Source of the DNA: a virus | Lineage: Duplodnaviria > Caudoviricetes | Direction: 5' to 3' (one strand) | DNA length: 64,000 nt | IMG/VR virus record: IMGVR_UViG_3300033555_000001 | Coordinates: 128,001 to 192,000 of that record | Notes under the pieces: generated by a model | The model's database searches: none | The model's input: only the letters and a program-made list of their open reading frames with translations | What the model was told of the DNA's origin: nothing | Shown here: positions 35,384-60,273 of the stretch, piece after piece | Layout: each line of letters begins with the position of its first letter | How positions within the stretch are numbered: the first letter of the stretch is position 1 | Made by a program: the position numbers and the translations under genes

Positions 35384-35389
35384 TATTTA
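35384..35389 (-). promoter_or_regulatory. late promoter core TAAATA overlapping the GNAT gene stop codon
   Basis: GTG TAA ATA G, upstream of the AGGA RBS of the gp6-like gene. Confidence 0.55.
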
Positions 35390-35830
35390 CACTGGTAGGC
35401 GGTTGGCAGGAATTGAACCCTTCTGGACTAACCACATGCGATTGCTTTGCGGATTATTTTTAAATCCAAAACGCCGATAGAACTTTTGAAGCTTATTAAC
35501 CTGTTCATCATCTGACATAGCTGAATCAGCATTCACGGCTTGACCAGGGAACGGATCTAAAAAGATAAGCTCGGCTGCCTGTGCTTCTGGCGTTTGCAGA
35601 AATTGTTTCATCAGTTTATCGCCATCACCGTTTCCCGGGTTATTAACCGAAATCATTTGAAGCTCAAGGACCTCTTTACTGTACCCATCAGGAATATACC
35701 CGGCGTGCTCTTCATCTTCAAGATCAGACTTCCAACCGTATTTGACGTATCCTTCAGCGGTTTTAATCTGCGCTTCCGACGGGTTTTCTGAAGATTTAAT
35801 AAAGCCTCTACAGATTTCAAGCAGCTTCAT
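35387..35830 (-). CDS. GNAT-family acetyltransferase
   Basis: LQMISVNNPGNGDGDKLMKQFL (motif A) and KLQKFYRRFGFK (motif B). Confidence 0.75.
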   Translation of the reverse strand: MKLLEICRGFIKSSENPSEAQIKTAEGYVKYGWKSDLEDEEHAGYIPDGYSKEVLELQMISVNNPGNGDGDKLMKQFLQTPEAQAAELIFLDPFPGQAVNADSAMSDDEQVNKLQKFYRRFGFKNNPQSNRMWLVQKGSIPANRLPV

Positions 35831-35831
35831 T

Positions 35832-36212
35832 TTACGCCCCAGTACTAAATGACAGCTTTAGTGTTTCGGTAATATTGAGCTCAACGTAGCGCAAGTCAAC
35901 AAAAGCAAAGATCGCGTTGTTATCCGGTGCAGCGTTAACTGACATGTCAATTAGCTGCACGCGCGGATCGTAATCAATTACTTTTTTTAAATCTTCTTTT
36001 ACAATATCAAGGGTCAAATTATCAAGTGGCTGAAATGCCAGTAACGGGATTCGCGTGCCAAAATCAGGCAAGTGCACGCGCTCACCAGGAATTGTGTAAA
36101 TGTGATTTAGTAAATCCTGTTTTACCAGTTCTTGATTTGTGAGCGAAAAGCCACGCTTCTTGTTAGCTAAGTACGAGGCAGTACTGAATCCGCGGTAGAG
36201 TGGTAGAGCCAT
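35832..36212 (-). CDS. gp25: baseplate wedge subunit gp25-like
   Basis: ELVKQDLLNH..T.PGER..LPDFGT.I...DPRV motifs. Confidence 0.9.
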   Translation of the reverse strand: MALPLYRGFSTASYLANKKRGFSLTNQELVKQDLLNHIYTIPGERVHLPDFGTRIPLLAFQPLDNLTLDIVKEDLKKVIDYDPRVQLIDMSVNAAPDNNAIFAFVDLRYVELNITETLKLSFSTGA

Positions 36213-36225
36213 AAATTTCCTTTAA

Positions 36226-37341
36226 TTAAGCACGCCAATTTTTATTACGAGCAGTCTTTGACGCTGCCCGGGGCCATGGCTCGTGCGATGGAACTGTGCT
36301 TGGGCCTGTCAGGCAGTCTGCTCCAGCAGCTGCTGGGCCGTTAAGATGAATGTTAGAACCAGTACAAAGTACTGCCCCCGCTGAGAGAATATTAAAGCTC
36401 TCAGTAGATTCTAAATTAATGCCACCACCGCTTACTGATAGTTTCCCGCACGATGTCAGCTTAAGCGCGCCAGTGGCGCCAATGTTTACCTCTTTACCGG
36501 CGCTCACATTAAACGATCCAGCAGCAGAAATATTAAAATCACCGCCCGTTGAAAAGCTAATGCTGCCCGCACCATACACATGCACTCGACCGTCCTGATC
36601 CATTTCAATCCATGATTTGCCGTGCGCAGTGCTCACATAAATTCGCTCGTTAGCGTCATCCAAAATAACTTGATGACCTGCCGCGGACTTAATTCGAACA
36701 CGGCCGGTTTCCGGGTTGTCTTGAAAAATTAAAGAGTGCCGGCCTGGTGTTGTGAGTGCATAAGTTTGCGGATCCAGTTGCGCGCGACCATTAAATTCTG
36801 GGTCTTTTAAATTTCGCTGATAGCCCTCTTTACCGTCTTTTTCAGTTTTGTCCTGTGCAACCGCACGTTCGTACGCGCCGCGGGTGCGGGCCTCTGGCGC
36901 ATCAAGCGCGTTATTAAACTGCTGCAGCAAATTGTTGTGTTGCGGCTGCACTGGTTCAAATGTGTCAGAGAGTGGGCTCTTTCCAAGGTCTGCTCTATTT
37001 CGACCAGTTGGCATAGACCTGTTACCATGATCTCTAAAATATGACCCCATGTAAACTCGGCGATTTACGTCACCATACAGGAAACCCACCACGCAAAGCG
37101 CACCTGTCTTTGGCACAGCAAAAAAGCCGTATGCTTGCAGCCCGCTAGTGATTGTGGCTGCAGGACCTGCCGGGTAATCTCTGGTTTGCCCTGCTAGAGG
37201 AGAAGAATAAGTTGCCCACGGCAAATCTATTACGTTGTAGAGCTCGCCATCAATTGCTGGCACGTATATTTTAACTCGACCCATTTGCTGAGGATCATTA
37301 GTGTCTACAACAACACCCTCCATTAATCCAGGAGTGTTCAT
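36226..37341 (-). CDS. gp5: baseplate central spike gp5/VgrG-like (OB fold + beta helix, no lysozyme domain)
   Basis: GVVVDTNDPQQMGRVKIYVP...LPWA; TPGRH..QD; SAAGH..LDD..E.I; short repeats at the C-terminus. Confidence 0.85.
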   Translation of the reverse strand: MNTPGLMEGVVVDTNDPQQMGRVKIYVPAIDGELYNVIDLPWATYSSPLAGQTRDYPAGPAATITSGLQAYGFFAVPKTGALCVVGFLYGDVNRRVYMGSYFRDHGNRSMPTGRNRADLGKSPLSDTFEPVQPQHNNLLQQFNNALDAPEARTRGAYERAVAQDKTEKDGKEGYQRNLKDPEFNGRAQLDPQTYALTTPGRHSLIFQDNPETGRVRIKSAAGHQVILDDANERIYVSTAHGKSWIEMDQDGRVHVYGAGSISFSTGGDFNISAAGSFNVSAGKEVNIGATGALKLTSCGKLSVSGGGINLESTESFNILSAGAVLCTGSNIHLNGPAAAGADCLTGPSTVPSHEPWPRAASKTARNKNWRA

Positions 37342-39449
37342 TTAATTTCCTTGACAGTGCTGGTGTTTTTACCAGTTGCGGTAAGATTATTTTGCAAAAA
37401 ATTCATTGCTGTTGCCAGCTCAAATTCCTGGGTAAATTTGGAGCCTTCAATTTTTGTTCGAATAGAGCGCACAAAAAAGTAGTTATCGTAAAACAGGCGC
37501 GTGCCAAAGTCTTGCCCGGCAATTAGCTCATTAGTAATAAAATCTACGTTAGGACCAAACACATTTACTTTTACAAAAATGGGCGTGCCTACCATACTTG
37601 GCCCCTGTAGCGGAGAGTTTACCTTAAAGCCGCCACCCGGAGACTGCTGTAACCCGGGTGTTAGCCGAAGTAGCTCCGCCTCAAATTGCGTTCTGTACTC
37701 GGCTTTTGAGTTGTCATTTGTTTTTGAGTTTCCATTATCAGCAAAAGTAGTAGCGCTTACGTGTTTTAATATTGATGTAAGTGTTACGCGCTCAAGCAGA
37801 TCTGGGTTACCCCTGATTGTCATCTTTATATCTGTTGAGCCACCCACCAAGTAGTTAGTTGAGTTTTGAGTATAGCGTTGGGCAATTGTCTGCGCAGATT
37901 CTCCTGACGCTCCAGTACCAGCACTAAGATTACTGAAATTTGTACTTTGATCCCCAGTACGAGGCGGGAAAAGCACAGGGTCTTTTGATCTAATATTTGC
38001 TGGGCTACTTTGCCCGCCCCGTACTTCTTCGCCATCTGCCTGCTGATTATCTACTTTATCTGCAACTGTCAATAACTTCCCTTGTCCTAACGAAGTTTTA
38101 GACAGCAACATCAGATTTAAATTCTTAATTTTTAAATCAAGCGACAGCACATCTATATTTTTACCTGAAAATATGTAGTCGTATTCTAGGAAGTTTTTTG
38201 GAACTTGTATATTCCCACCTTGACCGGCAATGGTTTCAAAGTATGGTGCTTGATCACCAACAGCATCAGTCTTTGCATTTAGTTCTACATTTGGAACCAC
38301 AAACTCTACAACGTCTACGTGCACAGTATATGTTGAATCGTCGCTGGTTATTGAAACGAGATGTTTAAAAAATTTAACATTGCTGGTGGTACCTGGATCT
38401 TTTTTAAAGTTCCCAAGTTCCATGACTTGTACTGTTTGACTCAAGATAATATCAAGCACTTCTGTAATTGAGATGTTTGGATCAACAGCAATAAAACTGT
38501 CTTTTGCAGGTGCGGCATTATTAATTGGCGTGGTGCGTGGGCCTACTCGCTTGTTTTCTTCTGTGCGTAACATGTCTCTAAAATTTGTTTCAATGGCGCC
38601 ACCTTGTGCTGGCCCAGAAAAGCCGTAGTCTGCCCAGCCTTTAGGCAGCGTAATCATGTACTGCACTGGACGGCCGGAAGAAAACTCCAGGCCTAATTTT
38701 GCCGTTGTGGTGGTGGCTTCGGCGTCATTGTACTGCCTGAAGCGGGCAAAAGACTCGGCGTTAAGTCTGCGTTCGAACGCTGCCACTACAGCGCCTAGTG
38801 TGTTGGCTCCATCACCAGTAAAATATGATGAGGCAGTTCCAAGATTTGTCCATTTACTATTTACTTCTCTAGAGCTGAGCACACCTACTAGCGAGATAAA
38901 TTTACAGGCGTACACGCCCTTTGTGTCATTTAGGTCCAGCTGTATCTCGTTAAAAAGTGCCGGAATACCAACTGACTGAACAACTTTTGTTTCGCCGCTT
39001 GCAGTGTGCCCAATAAACATGATTCTAATAAGCACAGACATGCCGCTTGTGCTTACTCCGAACCGCGCTTCCATTAAAAACTGTAGAAAATTAGCAAATG
39101 ATATTCCTTGACTGTCAAGTATTGTCATTGCAAGCTCTTGAGCCGCAGTATTAGGGCTGGTGCCGGGCGCCGCATAGCCCGTTGCATTAGACTTAATATC
39201 AAAGGAAGTAACTGTGAATTGCGAAAATCTGCGAGTATCCATCATTAGGAAAACTCCGCCACCGGGCTGACCGCTTACCTTTACTTCGTTTCCTAACTGC
39301 GTGCACGCATCAACGGCCTGTAGCGATTTGGCCATTGAGCCACCGCTGGTTTCAGTAAACTGGCGTAGCTCTTCTGTGCTTCGCGCGGCGAGCATTACAT
39401 AGTGAATACTGTGAGACTGAAACTCATCTAATTTATTTTTAATAAACAT
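37338..39449 (-). CDS. putative baseplate hub protein (gp27-like)
   Basis: Lies between the gp53-like and gp5-like genes; has IRGNPD and Y.V.SI...I.G.KFTQ..E hub-type C-terminal motifs. Confidence 0.6.
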   Translation of the reverse strand: MFIKNKLDEFQSHSIHYVMLAARSTEELRQFTETSGGSMAKSLQAVDACTQLGNEVKVSGQPGGGVFLMMDTRRFSQFTVTSFDIKSNATGYAAPGTSPNTAAQELAMTILDSQGISFANFLQFLMEARFGVSTSGMSVLIRIMFIGHTASGETKVVQSVGIPALFNEIQLDLNDTKGVYACKFISLVGVLSSREVNSKWTNLGTASSYFTGDGANTLGAVVAAFERRLNAESFARFRQYNDAEATTTTAKLGLEFSSGRPVQYMITLPKGWADYGFSGPAQGGAIETNFRDMLRTEENKRVGPRTTPINNAAPAKDSFIAVDPNISITEVLDIILSQTVQVMELGNFKKDPGTTSNVKFFKHLVSITSDDSTYTVHVDVVEFVVPNVELNAKTDAVGDQAPYFETIAGQGGNIQVPKNFLEYDYIFSGKNIDVLSLDLKIKNLNLMLLSKTSLGQGKLLTVADKVDNQQADGEEVRGGQSSPANIRSKDPVLFPPRTGDQSTNFSNLSAGTGASGESAQTIAQRYTQNSTNYLVGGSTDIKMTIRGNPDLLERVTLTSILKHVSATTFADNGNSKTNDNSKAEYRTQFEAELLRLTPGLQQSPGGGFKVNSPLQGPSMVGTPIFVKVNVFGPNVDFITNELIAGQDFGTRLFYDNYFFVRSIRTKIEGSKFTQEFELATAMNFLQNNLTATGKNTSTVKEIK

Positions 39450-39450
39450 G

Positions 39451-39837
39451 TTATACGATTGGTGTTATGTTAGTCAGTGGAATTTCTCTAGTAGAAGCAA
39501 ACCCGCCGATTTTCCCAGCAAGAAGCGATTGCACTCGGCTGCGTGATGGAATGCGCAGTACACGGCCTAGCGCGATCTCGGCAAATGGATCTAAAATTGC
39601 GTTGTACTGCGCAATAAACCACCACAGATGAGAATCACCCAAATAAGCAGCTGCAATTAAATCCAGCCGACCTTCAGTTTTTTTGTCAACGGTGTATCTT
39701 TCATCAGTGTCATCAAGCTCAAATACAGTGCGTTCCCACCACTCAAGGTTGCGAGAGCCTACTTCGGTTTTGCCGCCAACCACATAGCGTGATTGTTGCA
39801 CCAGTGTTGAATTAGTTTCAGCCAAATTCTTCTCCAA
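39451..39837 (-). CDS. gp53: LysM-like baseplate wedge protein (gp53-like)
   Basis: RLDLIAAAYLGDSHLWWFIAQYN..DPF...G..LRIP. Confidence 0.8.
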   Translation of the reverse strand: MEKNLAETNSTLVQQSRYVVGGKTEVGSRNLEWWERTVFELDDTDERYTVDKKTEGRLDLIAAAYLGDSHLWWFIAQYNAILDPFAEIALGRVLRIPSRSRVQSLLAGKIGGFASTREIPLTNITPIV

Positions 39838-41705: not shown

Positions 41706-41850
41706 GGAACACTGCGCGGGTCACCCGCGGGTCCCGGGTTTAATACAATAAATGTGGCGGCCGGGAGTGCGTGATCCCGGGTGGTGTGGCGCCCAGGCCC
41801 AGGATAGCTTAGAATTACCTATGCCGATCAACACCCTCTTAGGATACAAT

Positions 41851-42854: not shown

Positions 42855-42866
42855 AGCTTCTCCTGA

Positions 42867-43533: not shown

Positions 43534-43535
43534 TT

Positions 43536-43880: not shown

Positions 43881-43907
43881 GATTATCTTTTTGGGTTAGC
43901 GTAAATA

Positions 43908-43937
43908 ATTATATCCTAATCCCGAAATAAAGGTAAA
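43908..43937 (-). promoter_or_regulatory. sigma70-like early promoter
   Basis: TTTACC-18 nt-TATAAT upstream of gene 43536..43880. Confidence 0.55.
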
Positions 43938-43963
43938 CTAAATTGTAACGGTTTCGGTACCAG

Positions 43964-44179: not shown

Positions 44180-44203
44180 TCAATATTCCTGTATAATTTA
44201 AAG

Positions 44204-45471: not shown

Positions 45472-47136
45472 TTAAAGCTCTAATTTAAATTTTAAATTAC
45501 CACTGTCTTCACAGCGTAACCAACCATCAGCTCTCATATTCTCTAATTCTGTTTTACTGGCATCAAAATTCTTTACTATTCCAGGCAGCGCGGATTTCAT
45601 AGCTTGATATCGCAACAATCTAACTGGCCCTTTAACGTAAAAATAGTTAGGCCGTGTTGTCTTAATCAGTTTAAACCCTGCTCTGAGGTACGCATCACCC
45701 ACTGAAATTCTGCGATCTGCATAGGTGATTAAAGTCCGGTACGACTTTTTTCTGAGCTCTGCTAGAATTCGCTGAAATCCTCCGGTGACCGAAACTCCTG
45801 CACTGGCAAATCTAATTAGCTCTAATTCTTCTTTACCAAACCTAGCATGTCCAAAGCTAGCCGCTTGAACAAGTTTGTCATTATCAAACAGCCCAATAGT
45901 AAAACTTGCCTGCGCACTTCCTTGCAAGTGCCACTGCTTAAAAAATTCAGGACAGCCGCCCTTAAGCACTTTTACTTTTAGTTTTCTAGCCATTAGTCTA
46001 GGCAGCAATCCTAACTTAGCAAGTATAATGTTGTGCACCACAAGAGGCTTTTCATCTATTTCAAAATCCCAGAAGTGCAGTAACTGAATACCCGCAGCTT
46101 CAGCTAATTCAGTTTTCTTAATTAACGGTTGGGATACAGATTGGTCGTGATGCCAGTACACTCCATTTACTTCTATTGCTAATTGCTTAGCCGGAATATA
46201 AATGTCTAGTTCTAACGGTGAAATAACATTTCTGTCTTCTACCAAATACGAGAGATCTGTGTTAGATACCATTGCTTCAACGACTGTCTGAACTCCGCTC
46301 TTTCTTCTACAATACGGACAGAGAATACCTCTGTGTAGTCTGCCAGCTGCTTCAAATTGTTTGCCGCACTCTAGATGCTGCCACATGTATTTGGTTTCGT
46401 AACCGGACCAATCAGCTTTTGTGAACACTGGTATAACACTGCAGTCAGTTTTAATCTTCTGCATCTGCTCGTCAAAAGACCCGTCTAGAAAGCGCAATTT
46501 TGCTCGGTTGCTTAATTGTTTTTTCACTTCAGCAGTTTTAGTATAGTGAACCTCACCGTACTTAAGTAAAGTAGTTGATTCTGTTTTTATTCTAGTTTCT
46601 TGTTTTTCTGTTACCGATCGCCGTGCATGAGTAGCTGAAATTTGTTTCTTAATAACATCCGAATTGGCTGGATTTTCAGTACCGTATCTGAGCATATTTG
46701 TCGTAGCAGCTTTTTCTCGAACTTTAGGTGCGGACCATGATGCTTCATATCCGTACACTGCTAAACTTGTTTCTCTAATTTTAGCCCTGACAAGTTCAGA
46801 ACCCGCAGCATGTTCGGTTCCATACTTACTAAGATTGGTTTCTGATCGTTTTGATTTTGTGCTCTTTGAGACTGCGGCGCACTTAGGACTGCAGAATTTT
46901 TGAAGTTTGCCGTTAGCGTTTAAATTTAACGACTGACCACAGGAACAGTTTGGCCTGATTGAAATATCATTCTTCAATGCGTACATTTTTTCGGCAAGAG
47001 TAATCCACCCACCCAGATCCGCAGACATTAAATCAGCTTTAAAGATTTTTCCATTTGCGGAATTTAGCAGGCCAGTCATGAACTTACCGTCACGGTAAGC
47101 AAGATCCTGAAAGCGAGCTAGGAATAATTCAAACAT
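45472..47136 (-). mobile_element. Hef-like homing endonuclease (Zn ribbons + TNL.KYG repeats + Vsr/DUF559-type PD-(D/E)XK + C-terminal GNAT-like domain)
   Basis: CSCG..FCSPKC; ETNLSKYG/TNMLRYG repeats; ELDIYIP..AIEVNG.YWH; ITYADRR..G..Y...GF; visibly AT-rich; sits just downstream of the capsid gene. Confidence 0.75.
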
Positions 47137-47315: not shown

Positions 47316-48587
47316 TTACGAGAACGAAACGTTTGTGATCCTGATCCGTGCGTAGTAATCCGCGCTGTTACCAAGCGATGTACCAGCGTTGGTGAACGTA
47401 GCTTTTCCGTACCGGGTCATGAGGCTCACTGCTGGCATGAACGTGTTAGCGTCCATAACAACACCGGTGCTCATCAGTGGAACGTATGGGCAGTAAAAGT
47501 AACCTGTATCCAACTCTGACGAACCGCCTTTGTAGCCGATCAAGATGTCTTCGCCAGTTGTACCAGTAGCCGAACCAGCGCCGCCAGTCAATGTCCAAGC
47601 ATCATTCAGACCCCAGTTGTACGAGTAAACGCGCATCTGGCCATTCAACATACCAACAAGCTTGTTACCGGTAGGATCTTGGAACTGGCCAGAGACCGCT
47701 GGTGCAAACACGGACTTTGAAGCAGATTGCAAGATCGAAGTAACCAAGTGCGAACCAACCAACCAGTTACCAGGTCCACGACGCGTTTTAGCGCCGATTT
47801 CGTTTGCAAGCTTGTTAACCAAAATACCAAGTTCAGCGTAACGATCACCAATGAAGTTCGGCGAGAAACCAGCTGGTGGAGTTGCGAAGTCGAATGTTCC
47901 AACAGTTGCGGCCAGGGCCAACAGGTCTGTCAAGATTTCATTGTCGATTTCGTGAGCGATCTGAGCTGACAAGGCTGCTGTCAATTCATTTTCCAGATCA
48001 AGACCGTGCTGCGAAGTCATGTCCTGAGCTGCTTCCATTGTCCAACGAGCCTGCAACTTACGGGAACCTGCAGTGATTGTTTGCTTCAAGACGCTCAAAC
48101 GCAACGCACGACCGCCGTAGCCTTCGTAATCGCTTGTATTCGCGCCAACACCAGTACTTGTGTTAGCTGTCAGTGCTGGCGGATAACCTGCCGTACCAAC
48201 GTTTGCTGTCGAATAGAAACGCTTCATCTTCGAGTTGTTTGCAAAAACTTCATCACCAGCAGCGATGTCGTTTGAAGGATCGCCGTTTGTGTCGACGGAC
48301 TCAGCAAACGCAAAGCGCAAGCTGTATACCAAGCCAACTGGACCGCTCATTGGCTGTACGCCAACTAGATCGGTTGCAATAGTACCTGGCAAAATACGAC
48401 GAATCATCGGGATAACGATTTTTTGGAAGCCGTCAACAGCGTTAGCCGTTGTTGCAGTTGCGCTTGCGGTTTCCATCATGTACTGCTTCTGATTCTCCAG
48501 AAGAGTAGACACGATTTGTTTCTTCGAACCAGTAAGGCCTTCTAGCAAGGCGGCTTTAGTTTCGATCCAGTTTTCCGTTAGTAACAT
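47316..48587 (-). CDS. gp23: major capsid protein (gp23-like)
   Basis: LVGVQPMSGPVGLVY.LR, TITAGSRKL.A.WT.EAAQD, EIDNEI, GYFYCPYVPL and LMTRYG motifs. Confidence 0.95.
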   Translation of the reverse strand: MLLTENWIETKAALLEGLTGSKKQIVSTLLENQKQYMMETASATATTANAVDGFQKIVIPMIRRILPGTIATDLVGVQPMSGPVGLVYSLRFAFAESVDTNGDPSNDIAAGDEVFANNSKMKRFYSTANVGTAGYPPALTANTSTGVGANTSDYEGYGGRALRLSVLKQTITAGSRKLQARWTMEAAQDMTSQHGLDLENELTAALSAQIAHEIDNEILTDLLALAATVGTFDFATPPAGFSPNFIGDRYAELGILVNKLANEIGAKTRRGPGNWLVGSHLVTSILQSASKSVFAPAVSGQFQDPTGNKLVGMLNGQMRVYSYNWGLNDAWTLTGGAGSATGTTGEDILIGYKGGSSELDTGYFYCPYVPLMSTGVVMDANTFMPAVSLMTRYGKATFTNAGTSLGNSADYYARIRITNVSFS

Positions 48588-48619
48588 GTGTTGTGCTCCT
48601 TATATAGTGTGGGACAGGA

Positions 48620-49507
48620 TTACTTGCTGATACCTGCGAGGCGCTGCAGATTGGCGATGCTTTCATTAAGCTTCGTTGCTACTGCCGCTGGTTCCAACGG
48701 TGCGTCACCTGTCACGACCGTGGTTTTCTTTTCAACTGTAGACTCACTAAGAGTAGTAGTTGCCGGAGCAGCTACGTCTTCTTTCATGATACGACCGATG
48801 AAGAATTTATATGACTCTTCAAGACGAGCAGTATCGATGTTTTTAAGAACCATCTCCATTTGCTCACGTTTCTTTCCTGATAGATTAGAAAGAATTTTCT
48901 CAAGCTTTACTTCACGTACCATCACGCGATTAGCTTCTTCCGAGTCAGTTAATGCTTGTGCTAGATCTGCAAGTTGTGATTCAGCCACCTGGAGCTTGGA
49001 GCTCACGGAGTCTTCATTAACATGCGCTTTAGCAAATGTGGTTGCGTACGCTTCAAAAATCTGGCGACCAAATTCGTTTTGTTTTACAAGTGCGATATCT
49101 TCCGACAGTTCATCGATTTCGGCGGAGAGGCGAACTTCAAAAAACGCGTCCATTTTGTCGATTAGCTGTTCCATTTCCGATTCAACTTCATCGGCTAATT
49201 TGTACTTTTCTTCAACTAACTTTTCAGCGTACTCAGCTTCAAGGTCGCGGAAACGTTCAATATCAGATTTAAGTTCAGTAACTTCTTTAAGCAAAGCATC
49301 TGCTACAAAGCCATCAACCTTAGTAACCAGTTCATCGCGCTCAGCAAGCCACTGTTCTGCGAGTTCCGAACGAACCGTCAGTGAAACTTCTTCGCGGACT
49401 TGCGTCTTGAAGGATTCAACTGAAGTTGTCCATTGCTCGGAGATTTCAGCTTTAGTTTCTTCGCTAAGCAGCTCAGACTGAAGCAATTTCTGCAGGATTT
49501 CGTCCAT
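48620..49507 (-). CDS. gp22: prohead core/scaffold protein (gp22-like)
   Basis: Acidic coiled coil directly upstream of the capsid gene; KQNEFGRQIFEAY motif; GGAG RBS. Confidence 0.85.
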   Translation of the reverse strand: MDEILQKLLQSELLSEETKAEISEQWTTSVESFKTQVREEVSLTVRSELAEQWLAERDELVTKVDGFVADALLKEVTELKSDIERFRDLEAEYAEKLVEEKYKLADEVESEMEQLIDKMDAFFEVRLSAEIDELSEDIALVKQNEFGRQIFEAYATTFAKAHVNEDSVSSKLQVAESQLADLAQALTDSEEANRVMVREVKLEKILSNLSGKKREQMEMVLKNIDTARLEESYKFFIGRIMKEDVAAPATTTLSESTVEKKTTVVTGDAPLEPAAVATKLNESIANLQRLAGISK

Positions 49508-49662: not shown

Positions 49663-49830
49663 TTACTCGTCAGATTGTTCTACAGATGCTTCTTCTTTTG
49701 CGGCCGAGAAGCCCGCGAGTTCTTGTGTTTTTGCTACAATGTAGTTGTGGATAGTTACTTCAGCCTGCTCAGGCCGATCATTAATCAAATCCTGCAACAT
49801 TGATTTTAGTTGCTCGCGTGCTTCGCTCAT
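49663..49830 (-). CDS. small acidic head-assembly protein (55 aa; gp67-like position), missed by the ORF track
   Basis: MSEAREQLKSMLQDLINDRPEQAEVTIHNYIVAK...; AAGGA RBS; TAAATA at 49862..49867 upstream. Confidence 0.7.
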   Translation of the reverse strand: MSEAREQLKSMLQDLINDRPEQAEVTIHNYIVAKTQELAGFSAAKEEASVEQSDE

Positions 49831-49887: not shown

Positions 49888-50430
49888 TTACCACTCACTC
49901 TCTTCGGACCTGTCGATCACCGGTTTGACGAGCCTGACTGCCTTTCTAATAGATGCTCCATCAGGGAAAACAAAGTAAAAGATCCCAAAGTTCTCATGAC
50001 GCTTGTACTCGATGCCAGCGTCTTTAAGTTCAGCCTCTGCTTTTTGAGCATTCAGCCGATCTTCGAAACCAAACTCTGGGCGCTCTGTACTGACGCCACC
50101 CATCTTCACGCCGAGGTGTTTACCTTCAGCAACTTTAGACCGTAGAAATTTTTCAAGGGATGCACCGCCTTCGGCGCGAGCCGCTGCGGTGATGGCTACT
50201 TTATCAGTATCCCACTGCTTTTGCGATTCATCGTCTGCAATCGACGCGGCAACTTTACCAGATTTATTGAACAGCACGTTTATACCGTAGTAGTCCTCTT
50301 GATCGGCTTTGGCCGAGTTATTCTTAACAAGCACCGCAAACGTGGCCCCAATTGCGCCCATGTCGCCCGTACCGCAGTATTTATTTTTCTTGATCGCCTC
50401 GGTAAGTGCGATTAATTCCCTCAATATCAT
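49888..50430 (-). CDS. hypothetical protein inserted in the head operon, putative internal head protein
   Basis: ATGA-coupled to the protease gene; N-terminus MILRELIALTEA. Confidence 0.6.
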   Translation of the reverse strand: MILRELIALTEAIKKNKYCGTGDMGAIGATFAVLVKNNSAKADQEDYYGINVLFNKSGKVAASIADDESQKQWDTDKVAITAAARAEGGASLEKFLRSKVAEGKHLGVKMGGVSTERPEFGFEDRLNAQKAEAELKDAGIEYKRHENFGIFYFVFPDGASIRKAVRLVKPVIDRSEESEW

Positions 50431-51041
50431 TTTCCACCTTTGCGGATGGCCTCTAACAGGGCGTTAATTTCTTTCTTAAAGTACTCTTGAGCCTTTGGAT
50501 CATGCACAACGGCTTCGGCTAAAGTGAGAACTTTCTTTGAACCAAGAGCTTCTGCAACGTAGTTTGGATAGGCGTCTGGCGCGCTTGGTGTGGAAACAAT
50601 GTCCATTGTCACAAATGCAAAGTCTGAAACATTACCACCTTCATTTACCGTACCTGTACCACGGGAGCTCACACCTAGTCTGACTCCACCCTCCATGATG
50701 GCCTTAGCAATATTACCGCATGGCGTATTCAACATCTTCATTTTGCCAACTGCGTTGTTGCCGTCCATACGGATTTCAGTAATGGCGTGCGATACATTTG
50801 CCAGGTTAATGCTTAGAACATCGGGATGGTTTAATTCTCCCAAAATAAAATTGCCCTGTTTAATTTTACTCTGGCATTCGTCAACTGCGCGAGTAATTTG
50901 ATCAACCCCATAAGTTCTTCCGTTACCGTTTTTCATCGCGGCCTGCATCATGATTCCGGACAAAAACATATCGCCACCCACGCGTTTCATTTCTGTCAAA
51001 TTAGTAACATTCGGTGCAAGATATTCTGTCAACAAGATCAT
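50427..51041 (-). CDS. gp21: prohead protease (gp21-like)
   Basis: KNGNGRTY, GELNHP, VSHAI, TPCG.I.K...G..LGVSSRG.G and D.VSTPSAPDA motifs. Confidence 0.95.
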   Translation of the reverse strand: MILLTEYLAPNVTNLTEMKRVGGDMFLSGIMMQAAMKNGNGRTYGVDQITRAVDECQSKIKQGNFILGELNHPDVLSINLANVSHAITEIRMDGNNAVGKMKMLNTPCGNIAKAIMEGGVRLGVSSRGTGTVNEGGNVSDFAFVTMDIVSTPSAPDAYPNYVAEALGSKKVLTLAEAVVHDPKAQEYFKKEINALLEAIRKGGK

Positions 51042-51179: not shown

Positions 51180-51203
51180 GTTCTACGTACTATAAGAAAT
51201 AAA

Positions 51204-52853
51204 TTACTCTGCGGGTGGCTCTTCTGCAGGGGTTAATGTCTTAAATGGCGCGTCTTCAAAGTCCGTGTCTAATAACCCAGCTGCAGGATCCATATCCATT
51301 TCATCAGTTCCACCACCACCTTGTGCAACGTCAGTTCCTACAATCACTGGCGCACGCTGAGAATAAACAGCATCGTCGTACAGCTGCTGCATGATAGGCA
51401 CACCTGCTGTATCAACCATGTTCTTTTCTTCTTTGAGCTGAACTTCATTCATCTGAATTTCATCGTCAGACAGACCAAGATAGCGCTTAAGAATAAACCG
51501 GCGTGACAACCATTTAACCTCTTGAATATTGGTAAACGAGCTAATAAGATCGGCGTCAAGAGCTGCCTGGCGGTAGAGTGCAAAGTTCGCTGGGTCTGGT
51601 AGTTTAATGCTGAATACTTCATCATCAACGTGTAGCCCACATACCTTTAGGTAAATCTTAAATTCGGCGTCGTAGATCTCATTGATCCTGTCCTGCAGCC
51701 TCGAAATAAAGTTCGCAAATCTGAGCTCTTCAATGTACGCAATACCTACTTTGCCGTCATTAGACTGCGGATCGGTGCCACCACTGCCGCCCATGTACGA
51801 GGTAGGAATACGCAGGCCGCGGAAGATCTTATCCTGGAATTGCTTGAGTAAATTAGTACCAAAGTCCTCGCTGCCACCGGGCAGTGTTTCAACCCGTGAA
51901 CCTTTACCGGCCGCTGTTACTGGGAAAAAGTAATCTTCTTGGAGTGAAGACGGATCGTACTGCCCGTCAACCGTGTCCTTCATGCCATTTGTCTGTACAC
52001 CCGGTGCGCGCTTTTGACGAATTTCATTTTTGATAGATTCAAGATAACGCTTTACCGCTTGCTGGTTCATGTTACCGGTGTCAATGTAGAACACGCGTCG
52101 CTCTGGGGCTCGCACAATTCGGTAAATGATTACTGCGTCTTCCAGCATTGACAGCTGGCGGTAAACGCGGAAAATTGGTTTTAGTACCGAAGCGCCAAAG
52201 GGTGCAGAGTCCCCCATGTCGTCTGACATAGAGAAATGAATCATTGCCGATGCTGGAACAATATCAAACTGCTCACCGCGATTTACACCAAAGCCAGTTG
52301 TACTTGCAATGCCAGGGCGGCGCAAATGATAATTTATTCGCGATCCCATTTCGTCAATTTCAATTCCAGCTACTAGCGATGGATCCACATACGCCCATTT
52401 TCTGGTGTCACTTGCCTTGCGGAAGAAACAATCACCGTACTTGATCATGCATCTTGATGTACTAAACACACGCTTCTTGAGGTCCTGCAGCTGTGCCCAC
52501 TGGCGTAGAGCCGCGCGAACTGTTACCGTTGTAGTATCTGAAACGTCTTGGTTATCTTCTTTTTGCCACTGAATTAAAAATGGCAACTCAGTCTTGTCAT
52601 CTTTACCGGACATTTCTTCTGCAATAATATCCAGTGAGCGAGAAATATCAATGTCTGCGTCCATTGCATCGTACTGCTTGTACGTTGCAGTACGGCCGCC
52701 AGGGCCGCGCATGATTTGCGAATACCAGGTAACGGCGGCCAACGAGCTGGCGTCAGTGCTGCGCGGATCGTATGCATCCGTTGCCAGCGTGGTGTACATT
52801 TGTTTTCGCGTCTTTGGAGATACTATCTTCCACATCGCGGAGAGTTGTGCCAT
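51204..52853 (-). CDS. gp20: portal protein (gp20-like)
   Basis: LSMLEDAVIIYRIVRAPERRVFYID.GNM, QEDYFFP..GSRVETLPGG and EELRF motifs. Confidence 0.95.
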   Translation of the reverse strand: MAQLSAMWKIVSPKTRKQMYTTLATDAYDPRSTDASSLAAVTWYSQIMRGPGGRTATYKQYDAMDADIDISRSLDIIAEEMSGKDDKTELPFLIQWQKEDNQDVSDTTTVTVRAALRQWAQLQDLKKRVFSTSRCMIKYGDCFFRKASDTRKWAYVDPSLVAGIEIDEMGSRINYHLRRPGIASTTGFGVNRGEQFDIVPASAMIHFSMSDDMGDSAPFGASVLKPIFRVYRQLSMLEDAVIIYRIVRAPERRVFYIDTGNMNQQAVKRYLESIKNEIRQKRAPGVQTNGMKDTVDGQYDPSSLQEDYFFPVTAAGKGSRVETLPGGSEDFGTNLLKQFQDKIFRGLRIPTSYMGGSGGTDPQSNDGKVGIAYIEELRFANFISRLQDRINEIYDAEFKIYLKVCGLHVDDEVFSIKLPDPANFALYRQAALDADLISSFTNIQEVKWLSRRFILKRYLGLSDDEIQMNEVQLKEEKNMVDTAGVPIMQQLYDDAVYSQRAPVIVGTDVAQGGGGTDEMDMDPAAGLLDTDFEDAPFKTLTPAEEPPAE

Positions 52854-52856
52854 GTA

Positions 52857-55775: not shown

Positions 55776-55809
55776 CCTGGGTGTCCGGTAAGCCCTTAAC
55801 AGGGCAGCG

Positions 55810-55828
55810 TAAATAGGTGATCTATTTA
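55810..55828. promoter_or_regulatory. back-to-back late promoter cores (TAAATA on + at 55810..55815; on - at 55823..55828)
   Basis: Both lie in the 72-nt gap between divergent late genes. Confidence 0.6.
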
Positions 55829-55847
55829 GATAAGAGGACTACGTCAC

Positions 55848-56636
55848 ATGTCTGACACTCAAAACCCGCTGCTGGCCAAGATTAAATTGCCAGGCCGCAC
55901 ATTCCAGCTCCCATCCCGTGGTGCAATGTACAACAATGGTGAATTAGCAGCAGATTCGCCAACCGGCGAAATTCAAGTATATCCGCTAAGCGCTCTTGCT
56001 GAAATAAATTTAAAGAACCCTGATTTGCTGTTTAACGGCCAGGCATTGGTTGCTGTGCTGAATGAGTGCGTTCCAGCAATTAAAAAGCCGCTAGACATGT
56101 TTGGGCGAGATGTTGACGCGCTGCTGTTCTTCTTGCGACTAGCAACGTACGGCCAAGAGTATCGGATTGAAGTAAAGCACGATTGCGCAGAGGCTAAACA
56201 ACACGCCTATGCGGTTAATTTAGAAGAAGTAATCCAGCGCATGGTATTTCTTGACCCAACAGTTATTGCCAGTAAACAGACGGTGGTGCTGTCAAATGGC
56301 CAGACCGTTTATACTCGCCCAATGAAGTTCAGCGATATTATTGCGCTCTTTCATAAGAGCGGCAGCAAAAAAGAACTTACCCCAGATGACATCAAAGAAC
56401 TTGCTGTTACTAATCTTATGTCAATGATCGAGCGAGTTGAGGATATTACTAACGCAGCTATGATTGAAGAGTGGGTGCGCACGCTTACGACTCCAATGTT
56501 TAATCGAATTACTGAGGCTGCAAACGAGCTCAACAGTTGGGGTCCTGAGCAAGTGGTAGAAATCAAGTGCAAAGACTGCCACGGAACAATGCGCGTAGAG
56601 CTGCCGCTGAATCCTGTATCTTTTTTCACCGAATGA
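55848..56636 (+). CDS. gp26: baseplate hub/tail assembly protein (gp26-like)
   Basis: LPSRG..Y, E...LKNPDLL.NG, D.DALL..LR.A.YG, CxHxC and CKDC Zn-like pairs, ends PVSFF. Confidence 0.8.
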   Translation: MSDTQNPLLAKIKLPGRTFQLPSRGAMYNNGELAADSPTGEIQVYPLSALAEINLKNPDLLFNGQALVAVLNECVPAIKKPLDMFGRDVDALLFFLRLATYGQEYRIEVKHDCAEAKQHAYAVNLEEVIQRMVFLDPTVIASKQTVVLSNGQTVYTRPMKFSDIIALFHKSGSKKELTPDDIKELAVTNLMSMIERVEDITNAAMIEEWVRTLTTPMFNRITEAANELNSWGPEQVVEIKCKDCHGTMRVELPLNPVSFFTE

Positions 56637-56664
56637 TTTTGGATGGCGATCGCACCAAAATCAT
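56621..56664 (+). promoter_or_regulatory. candidate programmed -1 ribosomal frameshift signal
   Basis: In-frame slippery heptamer T TTT TTC (56621..56627), 5-nt spacer, perfect stem ATGATTTTGG (56633..56642) / CCAAAATCAT (56655..56664). Confidence 0.7.
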
Positions 56665-56863
56665 AAACATGATCGATAGAATGTCCCTGGATGTCAAGGC
56701 GCTTATTCAGTGCGCACTTGATATTGCAACACATACTAGAGGCGGCGTGCCGTACGAGACCGCACTTAACATGTCAGCTTTTGAGCGTGATCTGGCAATT
56801 GAGGGAATTAATAAGAGATTAGAGGCTGCGTCTAAGTCTCCATTTGGTGGCATGATGATGTAA
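56633..56863 (+). CDS. gp51: gp51-like assembly protein (76 aa), in the -1 frame of the gp26-like gene
   Basis: ATGA overlap; GG..YE.A.NMS.FER....I pattern resembles gp51; no clear Shine-Dalgarno. Confidence 0.65.
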   Translation: MILDGDRTKIINMIDRMSLDVKALIQCALDIATHTRGGVPYETALNMSAFERDLAIEGINKRLEAASKSPFGGMMM

Positions 56864-56864
56864 T

Positions 56865-56892
56865 AAAAGGGGATCTTATAAGATCCCCTTTT
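56865..56892. terminator. bidirectional intrinsic terminator
   Basis: Palindrome AAAAGGGGATCTT-AT-AAGATCCCCTTTT between convergent genes. Confidence 0.85.
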
Positions 56893-56924
56893 CTTTTATT
56901 CGGCATTTAGGTTAATGTCAAGTA

Positions 56925-58175
56925 CTACGCCGTAAGACGAAGGTTTAATTTCTTCATGATTTCTGGCAGCCGATCCAAATACTGCTGAGGCACGCCATCT
57001 AGCCCATCATGCACCATAATTCCATGCTGATCAACAGCTTCCCAGAGCGCATATCTGGCGCGGCGTTCCCACGCAAAGTACCCACTGAATACCGATTTTA
57101 TATTTTGCCTGTTAGGCGCACGCTTGAGCAGTCCAAGACAGGCGTATTTTCTGGCAGCCGAGAACTGCGCAGCAATTCGCTGCAGGCGAGCACCAATTAA
57201 CATTAACTCAGACGTAGTAGCGTGTGGCGCAGCTTTGAGAATAATATCAGCGGTGAGTGAAAAGCCCGATCCGTTGGTTAGTAGTGTTGGGGAAATCTTT
57301 GAACCATTAGCCAGGCTCATGAGCACTTGCTTGATGGTACCGCGGTATTGATCAGTATACGGGTGCTGCAAAATCTGTAAACACAGCTCTTCCCTAAACG
57401 ATTCTTTATCTTCAAGCAGCCGCAACAAATCTGGAAACATCAGCCGCAGCGCGTTAGATCGATCGTGAAATGCTACTTCCAAGTGCTCCATTAAAAACTG
57501 CACATACGCAGAGTCAAGATCAATTCCCTGACCAAAGAGCATTTCTCTGAGCCAACCAGGCCAGGTTTCAACCGCGGCGATTGGCCACACTGAAGTATCT
57601 CGTAGCTGCAATTTACCACTGCGTGCAAAATAAAAGTTTATTTCTGGTGGCTGCCGTAATAACCAAATAAGCTGTGGGATAATTTCTGGCCGGCCGGTTG
57701 ATAACAGCCGGTTAATTATTACTGACTGATTGAGATTGGGCTGCAGATAGACTTTTGAAATAGCCGCATTTTCCGGCCTGACTCCTGGCTCGTAGTGCAG
57801 CTCAGTGGTTACGGCGTTAACCAGTTCTAAATCTGTGCGACTCAGTGTGCGAGGCACAAGAGTGCTCAGCTCCATGTTCTCTTCGCCAAGATTAAACCCA
57901 AGCTGCTTTATGGTGAAAAAGTAATCAAGGGCCGGTCGGTAATCGCGTACTTGATCCCTGAGATCCATTAGCCGCACTTGTACTTCACAGAAGCCCCGCG
58001 GCTTGCCGGATTTAATTGCTCCACGATACAAGTTCGCAAGCCATAAGATTAAGTCCTGGCGAGCCTCAATTTTTCCACGATGCAGTCGCTGCAGATCAGG
58101 CCAAAACTGCGTCCAGTGCAGGGGGTGATTGTGTGGCAAAGCGCCGGTGATGTTTAGCTTGTATGGACGTGTCAT
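56925..58175 (-). CDS. stand-alone family-A/T7-type polymerase-like protein
   Basis: Motif A-like GIDLDSAYVQFL, motif B-like RGTIKQVLMSLANG, motif C-like IMVHDGLDG, in the correct order. Confidence 0.55.
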   Translation of the reverse strand: MTRPYKLNITGALPHNHPLHWTQFWPDLQRLHRGKIEARQDLILWLANLYRGAIKSGKPRGFCEVQVRLMDLRDQVRDYRPALDYFFTIKQLGFNLGEENMELSTLVPRTLSRTDLELVNAVTTELHYEPGVRPENAAISKVYLQPNLNQSVIINRLLSTGRPEIIPQLIWLLRQPPEINFYFARSGKLQLRDTSVWPIAAVETWPGWLREMLFGQGIDLDSAYVQFLMEHLEVAFHDRSNALRLMFPDLLRLLEDKESFREELCLQILQHPYTDQYRGTIKQVLMSLANGSKISPTLLTNGSGFSLTADIILKAAPHATTSELMLIGARLQRIAAQFSAARKYACLGLLKRAPNRQNIKSVFSGYFAWERRARYALWEAVDQHGIMVHDGLDGVPQQYLDRLPEIMKKLNLRLTA

Positions 58176-58181
58176 GCTGTA

Positions 58182-58190
58182 ATTGTATCA
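58182..58190 (-). promoter_or_regulatory. extended -10 promoter (TGaTACAAT) 6 nt before the ATG
   Basis: Minus strand reads TGATACAAT-TACAGC-ATG; no Shine-Dalgarno. Confidence 0.5.
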
Positions 58191-58203
58191 TCTTCTAGAT
58201 GCT

Positions 58204-58227
58204 AAAAAGGGCATACAGTGTATGCCC
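58204..58227 (-). terminator. intrinsic terminator
   Basis: Minus strand GGGCATAC-act-GTATGCCC-TTTTT. Confidence 0.75.
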
Positions 58228-58251
58228 CTCTGGTTATTCAAACTGCAGAAA

Positions 58252-58479
58252 TTAGGGGAAAGCGCCTAACCAATACCCAATGCCGTGAATAACTCCAATT
58301 GGAAACAGCAAGGCTCCGGCAATTAACAGGATCCAAAAACCTGCTTTAATTGAAACCACAATGTGCGTCAGCCATGCCGCAAAAATGATAACTGGAAGAG
58401 CAACAAATAGTAGCACCGTTGCCACCGCACCTTTCTTGCTAAAGAATGAGTTAAAGCTAGAGCTAATCCTGTTAAACAT
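58252..58479 (-). CDS. small membrane protein
   Basis: Start moved to MFNRISS; two hydrophobic helices ending PIGVIHGIGYWLG. Confidence 0.65.
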   Translation of the reverse strand: MFNRISSSFNSFFSKKGAVATVLLFVALPVIIFAAWLTHIVVSIKAGFWILLIAGALLFPIGVIHGIGYWLGAFP

Positions 58480-58681
58480 TAGCTGCCGGCGGTGCAGTAC
58501 CCTGCCGCACGCTCTTTTTAAGAGCCAAATATGCGCCACGAAAAGTATTACTGTTTACGGTGACCGTGCCACGCTTGTCCCGTGTGTACGCCACGGCTTT
58601 GACGTCGACGCCCTGTGCAATTGCAGCTTTTTCTAGATTACGGGTAACTTTGCGCAGGCTTTTTGCTGTTTTAGCGTTCAT
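58472..58681 (-). CDS. small basic hypothetical protein
   Basis: GAGGAG RBS; MNAKTAKSLRK N-terminus. Confidence 0.65.
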   Translation of the reverse strand: MNAKTAKSLRKVTRNLEKAAIAQGVDVKAVAYTRDKRGTVTVNSNTFRGAYLALKKSVRQGTAPPAANV

Positions 58682-58740
58682 TGTGTGCTCCTCTTAAAAA
58701 TACTATTTTAGCCTGTATTGAATTTTAAGAGAGAGCCTTT

Positions 58741-59139
58741 TTAGGTTGATGCTTTTGCTGCCTTGGCTTTAACTCTGGCGCGCTTTGTTTTAAGCTTTCG
58801 ACGTTCTGCTTTTTCTTCAGGGGTGAAGTGCGTAGGGTGAATCAGTGCAGTTTGATTTGCGGCGTGCGTGCTAAGATAATTACCGGCCCCGTGCAAAAAG
58901 GCGATTAGCTGTGCGGGTTTCATGCCATATCGCGGCGCGCCATTTTCCACTTTTCCGAGCAAACTATTACAACTGCGGTGCAGCACGGCTCGAACGTGTC
59001 CGCCTTTATGGCAGTGATCTAGCACCGCCTCTTCTGGAGTGCAAACTAAGTTGCAAATAGCACAAAACCCGCCTTGCTGTTCGTGCATCAGCGTGCGGGT
59101 TTTCTTTACACCGGTAGTCTTAAGTTTTGTAGGAGTCAT
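58741..59139 (-). CDS. gp49: recombination endonuclease VII (gp49-like)
   Basis: Q.G.CAIC..LDHCH..GHVRAVLHRSCN.LLGKVEN. Confidence 0.9.
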   Translation of the reverse strand: MTPTKLKTTGVKKTRTLMHEQQGGFCAICNLVCTPEEAVLDHCHKGGHVRAVLHRSCNSLLGKVENGAPRYGMKPAQLIAFLHGAGNYLSTHAANQTALIHPTHFTPEEKAERRKLKTKRARVKAKAAKAST

Positions 59140-59142
59140 CCC

Positions 59143-59415
59143 CTATTTAACTGGGCTCTGCTCACCCCAAATTTCCATTTCTTCTGGTTCACCCGTAACG
59201 ATTAATGTTTTACCGCTTGCTTTTATAATACCATATTCACCATCGTCCCAAATTTCTTGAGGATCGGGAATGATTGTAACTTTACGTGTAATATAGCAAA
59301 ATCCATCTCGGGCTGTTGGAAATTTATTTGAAAAGTACCGCTCATTGTCTCGCTGAGTAATATAAATTTTAGCAGAGGCAGTGCGCGGTTTTTCTAAGAT
59401 TTCTGATAATTTCAC
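59143..59415 (-). CDS. hypothetical protein, putative internal head protein
   Basis: Coupled start; N-terminus MKLSEILE; its TAG stop forms part of a TAAATA core (59144..59149). Confidence 0.55.
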   Translation of the reverse strand: MKLSEILEKPRTASAKIYITQRDNERYFSNKFPTARDGFCYITRKVTIIPDPQEIWDDGEYGIIKASGKTLIVTGEPEEMEIWGEQSPVK

Positions 59416-59876
59416 GGCGACTTCTTCAATGAAGACTCAAAGGTAGAGGCTTCTTCAATTTCAAAGTTAAACGAATTATCAGTTACTCGCTTGACGACGT
59501 AATCACCATCATTTAGCTGCGCGGTCATACTGTTTTCAAGTTGAACTTCAATTGTATCTCCGGAGTACTTAAACGCTGAAATTTTAAGTGGATCCATGTA
59601 GACGGTAAAACCCTCGGCATCAGCCGTTTGATTAGGGCGAATTGGAGCCAGTGTTTTAGAGAGTTCAACCGCGCTAAACGTGCCAAACGGTTTTGATGTT
59701 GTACCAACCACGCTCAAGACCTCGTACGTTACTGGCTTTGTATCCAGTGGGCGAACCATGTAAGTAAGGGTTGATACGTACTTTGAAACTTCGGATTCGT
59801 TATTTGACCACAGGTCTTCTACGGCAACTTTTTCAATTGCCGCTTCAAAGATAGGTTTTAGATCTGATAATTTCAT
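59412..59876 (-). CDS. hypothetical protein, putative internal head protein
   Basis: GGAG RBS; TAAATA upstream; N-terminus MKLSDLKPIFEA. Confidence 0.6.
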   Translation of the reverse strand: MKLSDLKPIFEAAIEKVAVEDLWSNNESEVSKYVSTLTYMVRPLDTKPVTYEVLSVVGTTSKPFGTFSAVELSKTLAPIRPNQTADAEGFTVYMDPLKISAFKYSGDTIEVQLENSMTAQLNDGDYVVKRVTDNSFNFEIEEASTFESSLKKSP

Positions 59877-59883
59877 GACTGCT

Positions 59884-59916
59884 CCTGTAAGATCAGATAT
59901 TTAGCCCTCTATGATC
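59884..59916. repeat. 33-bp direct repeat, copy 1 (late promoter + gp46 3' end remnant)
   Basis: CCTGTAAGATCAGATATTTAGCCCTCTATGATC; 32/33 identical to 60281..60313. Confidence 0.9.
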
Positions 59917-59934
59917 TTGATAAGTCTACGGTGT

Positions 59935-60273
59935 TTAATAAAGTGGTTTTTTCTTAGTGAAAATTACATCGAACGAATTATCATTCTGTTCAAAACGAAA
60001 CATCGCCCAACCAGCAGCTTTTTCTTTTGCTATTGCTAAATTAAATGTCGCTTTATAAACATCAGGCGTGGTATTTTTTGGCATCTTAATAAGTTTTGAT
60101 TTGACGTCGCAGCCAGCGTTGTATAACTTCATCAGCTTGGTGGCGTCGGCACGCGACATCCATATATTGGCTGCAGAACCTTTGTCTTCAAGAAACTCAT
60201 AGAAGCCGTCAAGATCGGTAAATGCAAATCGCAATTTGGCTTCGGTAATTTGTAATAGCTGCTTCAATATCAT
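59935..60273 (-). CDS. hypothetical protein flanked by direct repeats, putative internal head protein
   Basis: N-terminus MILKQLLQITEA; own TAAATA and GGGGG RBS. Confidence 0.65.
   Translation of the reverse strand: MILKQLLQITEAKLRFAFTDLDGFYEFLEDKGSAANIWMSRADATKLMKLYNAGCDVKSKLIKMPKNTTPDVYKATFNLAIAKEKAAGWAMFRFEQNDNSFDVIFTKKKPLY

Follow-up and report, generated by a model that had tools for sequence, protein, structure and literature searches.

A 10-residue tag brings three small internal proteins and the Alt protein into the head of bacteriophage T4, and one of these internal proteins, IPI, is a counter-defence protein that is injected before gene expression. The cargo peptides of encapsulins are alike in that a short terminal peptide suffices to bring unrelated cargo into an HK97-fold shell, but they are C-terminal, bind the shell protein and remain uncleaved, and they serve cellular nanocompartments rather than virions. 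Here we describe a family of short N-terminal sequences, referred to as tags, that head about 25 proteins, or 5-6% of the genes, of an uncultured jumbo myovirus related to T4; six candidates are encoded in the stretch of DNA given above (the window: all 64,000 nucleotides, bases 128,001-192,000 of the 310,728-bp IMG/VR virus record IMGVR_UViG_3300033555_000001, which is estimated to be 87% complete). From the evidence presented below, these tags are probably capsid-targeting propeptides of the T4 type that are removed by the prohead protease, and the phage probably packs and injects an unusually large and fast-changing set of proteins.

The T4 capsid-targeting sequence (CTS) is MKTYQEFIAE (PMC8442874). 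The first 10 residues of IPIII suffice to package foreign proteins, genetic studies assign targeting to residues 4 and 7 and processing to 8 and 10, and the CTS is possibly an evolutionary device for placing various proteins in capsids (PMC9026906). Alt is cut at ITE-6 (PMC5694885). Among the T4 head genes, gp24 starts MAKINELLRE, Alt MELITE, gp21 MNEPQLLIE and the gp22 scaffold MLKEQLIAEA, while gp23 has KPLLEGEGL at the matching place, and the propeptides of gp24, Alt, gp21, gp67 and gp68 are cut by gp21 at (L/I)-x-E. The phiKZ-like giants (SPN3US, 201phi2-1) resemble the arrangement proposed here in that many head proteins are loaded via N-terminal propeptides and a gp21-related protease cuts after Glu, but they differ in that the propeptides are mostly longer than 100 residues, the cleavage motif is (S/A/G)-x-E and there is no recognised gp22-type scaffold (PMC5694885).

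Tag forms and their enrichment

The whole genome was called into approximately 470 open reading frames (ORFs), and the tags found at their starts take three forms (positions below are window-relative). Form A, with the consensus MxTFKQFLxE, is carried by seven genes, all outside the window; MITFKEFLGE, MITFKQYINE, MITFKEYLLE, MLTFRQFLQE, MISFKQFLTE, MSTFQDFLVE and MRFKEFLAE are among the examples, and seven starts fit M-x-(T/S)-F-(K/R/Q)-(E/Q/D)-(F/Y)-(L/I)-x-E. Form B, MK(L/I)SE(L/I)..E (MKLSELLxE), is found in about 12 genes, including those that start at 59415 and 59876 and, more loosely, those at 35830 and 958. The six genes of form C start with MIL(R/K)(E/Q)L(I/L)..TE (MILxELLxxTE) or MQLLQELL, and include those at 50430 and 60273. 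An earlier note on this DNA (the original prediction) had quoted eight N-termini, all of which were found where it had placed them: MKLLEI at 35830, MILRELIALTEA at 50430, (V)KLSEILE, with a GTG start, at 59415, MKLSDLKPIFEA at 59876, MILKQLLQITEA at 60273 and MLLSQIREE at 958, together with MILLTE at the start of the protease (51041) and MLLTE at that of the capsid protein (48587). The note had placed the candidate system at positions 35387-60273, but the motif extends beyond this interval: the system is genome-wide and most copies lie outside the window.

The enrichment of the motif, which the same note had proposed as a check, is pronounced. The pattern M[KIL]L.[EQD][LI] heads 11 of the approximately 470 ORFs, against 0.23 expected from its frequency inside proteins; it fits only 1 of 1682 internal Met residues, and 20,000 shuffles of the N-termini that preserved the composition of each column gave a mean of 0.78 and a maximum of 6. 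For the strict form, the same shuffles gave 0.01 against at least 4 observed, and the form A pattern occurs at only 1 of 1436 internal Met residues. A hydrophobic-x-Glu motif within residues 5-15 is present in 15 of 24 tagged proteins and in 66 of 444 others. The tagged proteins are neither unusually basic nor unusually small, with a median isoelectric point of 5.9 and a median length of 154 amino acids compared with 6.3 and 147 amino acids genome-wide.

Like the T4 CTS, the tag is a strictly N-terminal leader of about 10 residues with an aromatic residue or Leu at positions 4 and 7, Leu or Ile at 8 and Glu at 10 (in form A, Phe 4, Phe/Tyr 7, Leu/Ile 8 and Glu 10; the MKLSEL and MILxEL forms are offset by one residue and match the T4 register in outline only). 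As in T4, it is borne by unrelated, fast-evolving proteins, is linked to late-type promoter cores, and occurs in a genome that encodes an S77 protease beside a scaffold and a gp23-type capsid gene. Other T4 propeptides have counterparts as well: that of gp24 resembles form B, MK(L/I)SELLxE, and MELITE of Alt and QLLIE of gp21 are similar to the starts of the protease (MILLTE) and the capsid protein (MLLTE) described here; the gp22 start is close to the T4 CTS, and the scaffold N-terminus of this phage likewise resembles its tags. In contrast to the T4 propeptides cut by gp21, such a start is here spread over many non-structural, non-conserved proteins. There are about 25 carriers rather than a handful, three mutually replacing forms occur on one body, the carriers reach 525 amino acids and include enzyme domains (Amidoligase_2, and HD with a P-loop kinase), and the relatives of the phage have a dedicated hypervariable slot between the protease and scaffold genes; packaging, which is proven in T4, is here a prediction from the genes.

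Independence of tag and body, and the head module

Beyond the tag, the proteins are unrelated to one another, as the original prediction had held. All-against-all blastp of 27 tagged proteins, each without its first 15 residues, gave a single related pair, the paralogues at 87890 and 84980, one of which carries form A and the other form C. The Leu, Ser, Thr and Phe codons vary freely among the tags, and the conserved element is therefore the peptide; a nucleotide-level signal, in DNA or mRNA, was considered as the conserved element and is ruled out by this synonymous variation.

The clearest case of exchange concerns the 154-amino-acid protein that starts at 59876 (59412-59876, minus strand; MKLSDLKPIFE|A), the body of which is kept in 15 related loci with differing leader forms. 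In an alignment of nine orthologues, the conserved body is preceded by MKLSDLKPIFE, MKLHELKLFE, MKLLQELLSISE, MKTLLELLSMLHE, MKIFEIVE, the form A-like VTLKQFLELQE and MKITFKQFLE, and every one of these leaders closes with hydrophobic-x-Glu directly ahead of the body. The presence of differing leaders on one body indicates that the tag forms are interchangeable. The AlphaFold2 model of the protein (mean predicted local distance difference test score, pLDDT, 87) leaves residues 1-10 unstructured, with a pLDDT of 51, and has its first strand from residue 16, placing the leader outside the predicted fold; a structure search with the model returned no PDB match at E<=0.001, only unnamed viral matches.

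The head module lies on the minus strand in the order portal, protease, 180-amino-acid gene, conserved 55-amino-acid gene, 295-amino-acid scaffold-like gene and capsid gene. Megablast of the module against phage records gave no match, no record being alike at the DNA level, and by tblastn the major capsid protein is 54% identical to that of the Ralstonia jumbo phage RsoM2USA, 50% to that of XacN1 and 41% to those of the 121Q/PBECO4 group. The portal protein (549 amino acids, 51204-52853) served as the anchor for a search that fetched 78 related loci, with portal identities of 49-82%. The protease (204 amino acids, 50427-51041) belongs to the T4 gp21 family (Pfam Peptidase_S77, PF03420, 6e-23; 81.8 bits against a cut-off of 27). 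Its own N-terminus, MILLTE, is followed by a further L-T-E at residues 15-17, and a start of the type M(K/Q)LL.E.L.P....LTE(M/S) is kept in about 58 relatives, so that the core enzyme itself bears a form B/C-like start and then a second hydrophobic-x-Glu. The scaffold-like protein (295 amino acids, 48620-49507; PHROG 10922) is encoded between the protease and capsid genes in 50 related loci, and both its ends are near-invariant in an alignment of 17 sequences (N-terminal MDEILQKLLQSELLSEE, C-terminal L.RLAGI). The major capsid protein, of the gp23 type (423 amino acids, 47316-48587, identified by tblastn), starts MLLTENWIETKAALLEGL (MLLTE), and this N-terminus is kept in relatives. An S77 protease and a gp23-type capsid protein with a scaffold between them make T4-type head assembly the right frame of reference.

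Across the 50 related loci, the gap between the protease and scaffold genes spans 283 to 4374 nucleotides and contains 81 distinct ORFs of at least 80 amino acids, with 46 body families. Judged by eye, these ORFs mostly start MKLLQEML.L.EA, MLLKEL....E, MITFKQFIAEE or M..L(R/K)(K/R)LAGLP, and fixed patterns catch 40 of the 81. From these starts, the slot is, in the relatives, a hypervariable nest of what appear to be tagged genes.

The tags are also linked to a candidate late promoter. TAAATA, of which the genome has few copies (142), peaks 30-39 nucleotides ahead of start codons and precedes baseplate, tail and head genes, and it is therefore a plausible late-promoter core, related to T4 TATAAATA. 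It lies 12-60 nucleotides upstream of eight of 24 tagged genes and 39 of 446 others (p=0.0012), and the median distance to the nearest upstream copy is 390 nucleotides for tagged genes against 2245 nucleotides for the others (p=1e-5). The claim that most of the named genes are insertions behind such cores stood in part: the genes at 59876 and 60273 each have a core 27 nucleotides upstream, and the gene at 59415 and that at 50430 are coupled to others that follow a core (488 and 695 nucleotides), but no core lies within 3 kb of those at 35830 and 958. A 33-nucleotide promoter and ribosome-binding-site cassette precedes the gene at 60273 (60281-60313, minus strand; TAAATA at 60295-60300), and a second copy with one mismatch precedes that at 59876 (59884-59916, minus strand; TAAATA at 59898-59903); a third copy is absent from the genome, and the two that exist stand before two unrelated tagged genes.

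Virion proteins of a relative and rival explanations

RsoM2USA is the nearest cultured relative, and its ten abundant virion proteins, identified by mass spectrometry of gel bands, are the products of ORFs 38, 86, 89, 132, 257, 356, 359, 361, 383 and 438 (PMC8504454). Three of them carry form A: ORF89 starts MKTFKQFLSE, ORF132 starts MKTFKQFLNTLMEA (MKTFKQFLNT...) and ORF438, read from its second Met, starts MLTFKQYAQPILTE. All three are coded far from the structural module. Form A heads nine of the 486 ORFs of RsoM2USA, so its presence on three of the ten abundant virion proteins corresponds to a hypergeometric p≈5e-4. Tagged proteins are thus abundant in the virions of a relative, and this overlap, which concerns another phage and form A only and depends on the assignment of gel bands, is the strongest evidence suggesting that the tag marks virion proteins. 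Homologues in RsoM2USA were found for only four of 27 tagged proteins, indicating that the tagged set turns over quickly. Some deposited starts of RsoM2USA (MG752970) look wrong: that of ORF438 is probably at the second Met, the protease alignment opens 90 nucleotides upstream of the start of ORF379, and the frame of an Acb1-like protein runs upstream of ORF37 to a GTG, giving MKVTELLD.

If the tags are T4-type capsid-targeting propeptides, which we hold to be rather likely, the following course of events may be envisaged. The tag would be an amphipathic leader of 5-12 residues with hydrophobic residues spaced i, i+3, i+4 and closing in (L/I/F/V/T)-x-Glu. Late in infection it would bind the core of scaffold and protease on which the gp23-type shell assembles, and the bound protein would thereby be enclosed in the prohead; the S77 prohead protease would then cut after Glu, and the freed body would remain in the head and enter the host with the DNA. 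The tag would evolve and move apart from the body, new virion proteins being gained by the acquisition of a tag and sometimes of a late promoter as well. The original prediction had envisaged a portable, Glu-ending tag that, with a gp21-type protease, loads variable cargo; the S77 protease, the T4 register, the exchange of tags on one body, the tagged slot, the late cores and the enrichment among RsoM2USA virion proteins are all consistent with this, and the prediction is supported in part, with support from virions confined to the MxTFKQF form, which the note had not listed, and coming from another phage.

Several observations weigh against this interpretation. The RsoM2USA band assignments were graded 'most likely' by the authors (PMC8504454), and one of the three virion carriers, ORF438, requires a re-annotated start. 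Approximately 30 RsoM2USA paralogues of about 195 amino acids all start MKLxEI, and none is among the abundant virion bands. The XacN1 record is without any MxTFKQF start, and the chitinase and lipase of the XacN1 virion are without an obvious tag. A late-type core is lacking in the neighbourhood of several tagged genes. Finally, the loose MK(L/I)xE(L/I) form was observed 18 times against about 4.6 expected from internal Met residues, a sizeable chance background, so that several such candidates may be coincidences, among them those at 35830 and 958, a hub gene at 130741-131502 that starts MKLVEL and an Acb1-like gene discussed below. The MKLxEI paralogues of RsoM2USA occupy 175-215 kb of its genome (ORFs 274-336), and their positional counterpart in the present phage is an array of MNLYNLH paralogues at 127660-131502.

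One alternative is that the tags express a generic, Lys-rich, helix-forming N-terminal habit that aids translation initiation or folding, has no sorting role and resembles T4 by coincidence. N-termini often have Lys as residue 2 and hydrophobic residues as 3 and 6 (column frequencies of 0.15-0.31), the loose form B expression carries a background of approximately 25%, and none of the six proteins in the window has a known function. A habit of this kind would nevertheless be contained in the column-preserving shuffles, which give 0.78 where 11 are observed and, for the strict form, 0.01 where at least 4 are; nor would it account for the kept hydrophobic-x-Glu end (15/24 against 66/444), for orthologues that swap tags yet keep the body, for the concentration of tags beside the protease gene or for their enrichment among RsoM2USA virion proteins, and we consider it very unlikely. 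That the prohead protease, the capsid protein and the scaffold bear the same kind of N-terminus, that the tags match T4 propeptides of known role, that tagged proteins are found in RsoM2USA virions and that no other gene was found to co-vary with the tags all make it unlikely that they are recognition peptides for other machinery, be it a chaperone of the phage, a membrane or assembly hub, a modifying enzyme or a signal that sets protein lifetime through degradation, even though the approximately 30 MKLxEI paralogues outside the abundant virion bands of RsoM2USA would fit such a role.

The tags might also be pro-segments and nothing else, removed by the protease and holding the proteins inactive until head maturation or lysis, with targeting to the head effected by other parts of the protein or not at all. 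The hydrophobic-x-Glu end is indeed the best-kept feature, and the tag residues that serve processing in T4 differ from those that serve targeting (PMC9026906). A gp21-type protease acts inside the prohead, however, and its substrates must therefore be located in it; the bodies have no further feature in common by which they could be targeted, and in T4 the first 10 residues suffice to package foreign proteins (PMC9026906). This is, in our judgement, the least probable of the readings considered here.

A more specific version of the capsid-targeting mechanism, possible but doubtful, is that the leaders of the cargo mimic the two assembly ends of the scaffold, any protein with either end co-assembling into the core. 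In such a scheme, a leader of the MILKQLLQITE type would copy the near-invariant scaffold N-terminus (..ILQKLLQSE..), and a second leader found in relatives, M..LRKLAGLP..E, would copy the invariant C-terminal tail (..LQRLAGI..); RsoM2USA-like jumbo phages would thus load their heads in advance with some 25 diverse proteins to be delivered along with the DNA, enzymes included, among them an amidoligase-domain protein, a protein with HD and kinase domains and perhaps an Acb1-like anti-CBASS phosphodiesterase (CBASS, cyclic-oligonucleotide-based antiphage signalling system). The second leader, M..L(R/K)(K/R)LAG(L/I/V)P..E, stands at the start of 41 of the 1202 ORFs of the related loci, where about 5 would be expected, occurs in the slot after the protease in loci L029-L106 and at ORF380 of RsoM2USA (259705-260019), and is absent from the genome under study; the invariant tail at the C-terminus of the scaffold, ..LQRLAGISK here (48620-48650), is similar to it. 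The strict pattern modelled on the scaffold N-terminus, hh..hh.{1,3}E, has two matches in this genome against 1.1 expected, and since it is not enriched, scaffold mimicry remains an idea.

The tagged genes of the window and their cargo

Pfam and PHROG searches of the six named proteins gave no match except for the protein at 958, which matches the C-terminal end of the 602-position profile of PHROG 23027. The 180-amino-acid protein at 50430 (49888-50430, minus strand; MILRELIALTE|A) occupies the slot between protease and scaffold, its start overlapping the stop of the protease gene, and has partial homologues only, in eight related loci. It is followed by the small head-module protein of 55 amino acids (49663-49830, minus strand; MSEAREQLKSMLQDLI), which has TAAATA 37 nucleotides upstream and homologues in 51 related loci. 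Antisense to the scaffold gene, a 297-amino-acid open frame (48588-49481, plus strand) is favoured over the real gene by a length-based ORF picker and is unlikely to be a gene. The capsid gene is immediately followed by a gene for a 554-amino-acid protein resembling homing endonucleases of the HNH type (45472-47136, minus strand; PHROG 3339, 1e-98; Pfam DUF7487).

Three tagged genes form a cluster at 59143-60273, which is flanked by SbcC-like and endonuclease VII genes and lies outside the structural operons. The 112-amino-acid protein at 60273 (59935-60273, minus strand; MILKQLLQITE|A), preceded by its own late-type promoter cassette, has no homologue among the 78 related loci, and the 90-amino-acid protein at 59415 (59143-59415, minus strand; (V)KLSEILE|K) has a GTG start that overlaps the stop of the 154-amino-acid gene. 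The two weaker candidates lie elsewhere. The 147-amino-acid protein that starts MKLLEI (35387-35830, minus strand) is encoded between two baseplate-wedge genes, a site that is a mere 165-nucleotide gap in RsoM2USA; a homologue at the same place in locus L039 starts MKLNEL and is 85 amino acids longer, and the first approximately 100 residues are unaligned. A 138-amino-acid protein of the same locus, starting MILSEILDS, resembles the MITFKEFLGE protein (first residues compared by eye, unaligned and unscored) and, if homologous, would be a further example of a body that bears different tag forms; the L039 frames behind these two observations are L039:208-906 and L039:4520-4936. The 127-amino-acid protein starting MLLSQIRE|E (958-1341, plus strand) has a start that overlaps the stop of a 1010-amino-acid modular protein (-2074 to 958), which contains internal leader-like sequences, MESLTE/MESLTTE three times and NMKITE once, at its module borders.

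Most tagged proteins belong to no family. Among those outside the window, a form A protein of 525 amino acids has an Amidoligase_2 domain and another of 375 amino acids has HD and P-loop kinase domains. A 146-amino-acid protein starting MKLYELKE (G000:C1:236419-236859; window-relative 108419-108859) is an Acb1-like 2H phosphoesterase of the anti-CBASS type (Pfam PF23474, 1.6e-23). The nine residues MKLYELKEI lie ahead of the point at which the Pfam Acb1 profile begins, but its closest homologues start MLL(R/K/Q)EL (MLLRELASF and similar) and another solved Acb1 likewise has residues ahead of its first strand; the start therefore cannot be called a leader, and may simply be a feature of the family. 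The label 'effector', given to the cargo by the original prediction, is unsupported, since no domain or fold could be recognised in any of the six named proteins, and the analogy with T4 IPI and Alt makes such a role a reasonable guess, nothing more.

The mechanism proposed here is known from T4, and it seems fairly likely that what this phage adds is an expanded set of about 25 carriers and three tag forms that can replace one another; in the searchable literature, we found no account of such an expanded, multi-form tag repertoire in jumbo phages with a T4-type scaffold. If this interpretation is correct, this clade of jumbo phages would deliver dozens of proteins, enzymes included, at the onset of infection. 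The tag would then provide a simple sequence rule for listing the injected set in uncultured phages, and the resulting list would be a ready source of candidates for early counter-defence and host takeover. As RsoM2USA is in culture, the prediction is directly testable.

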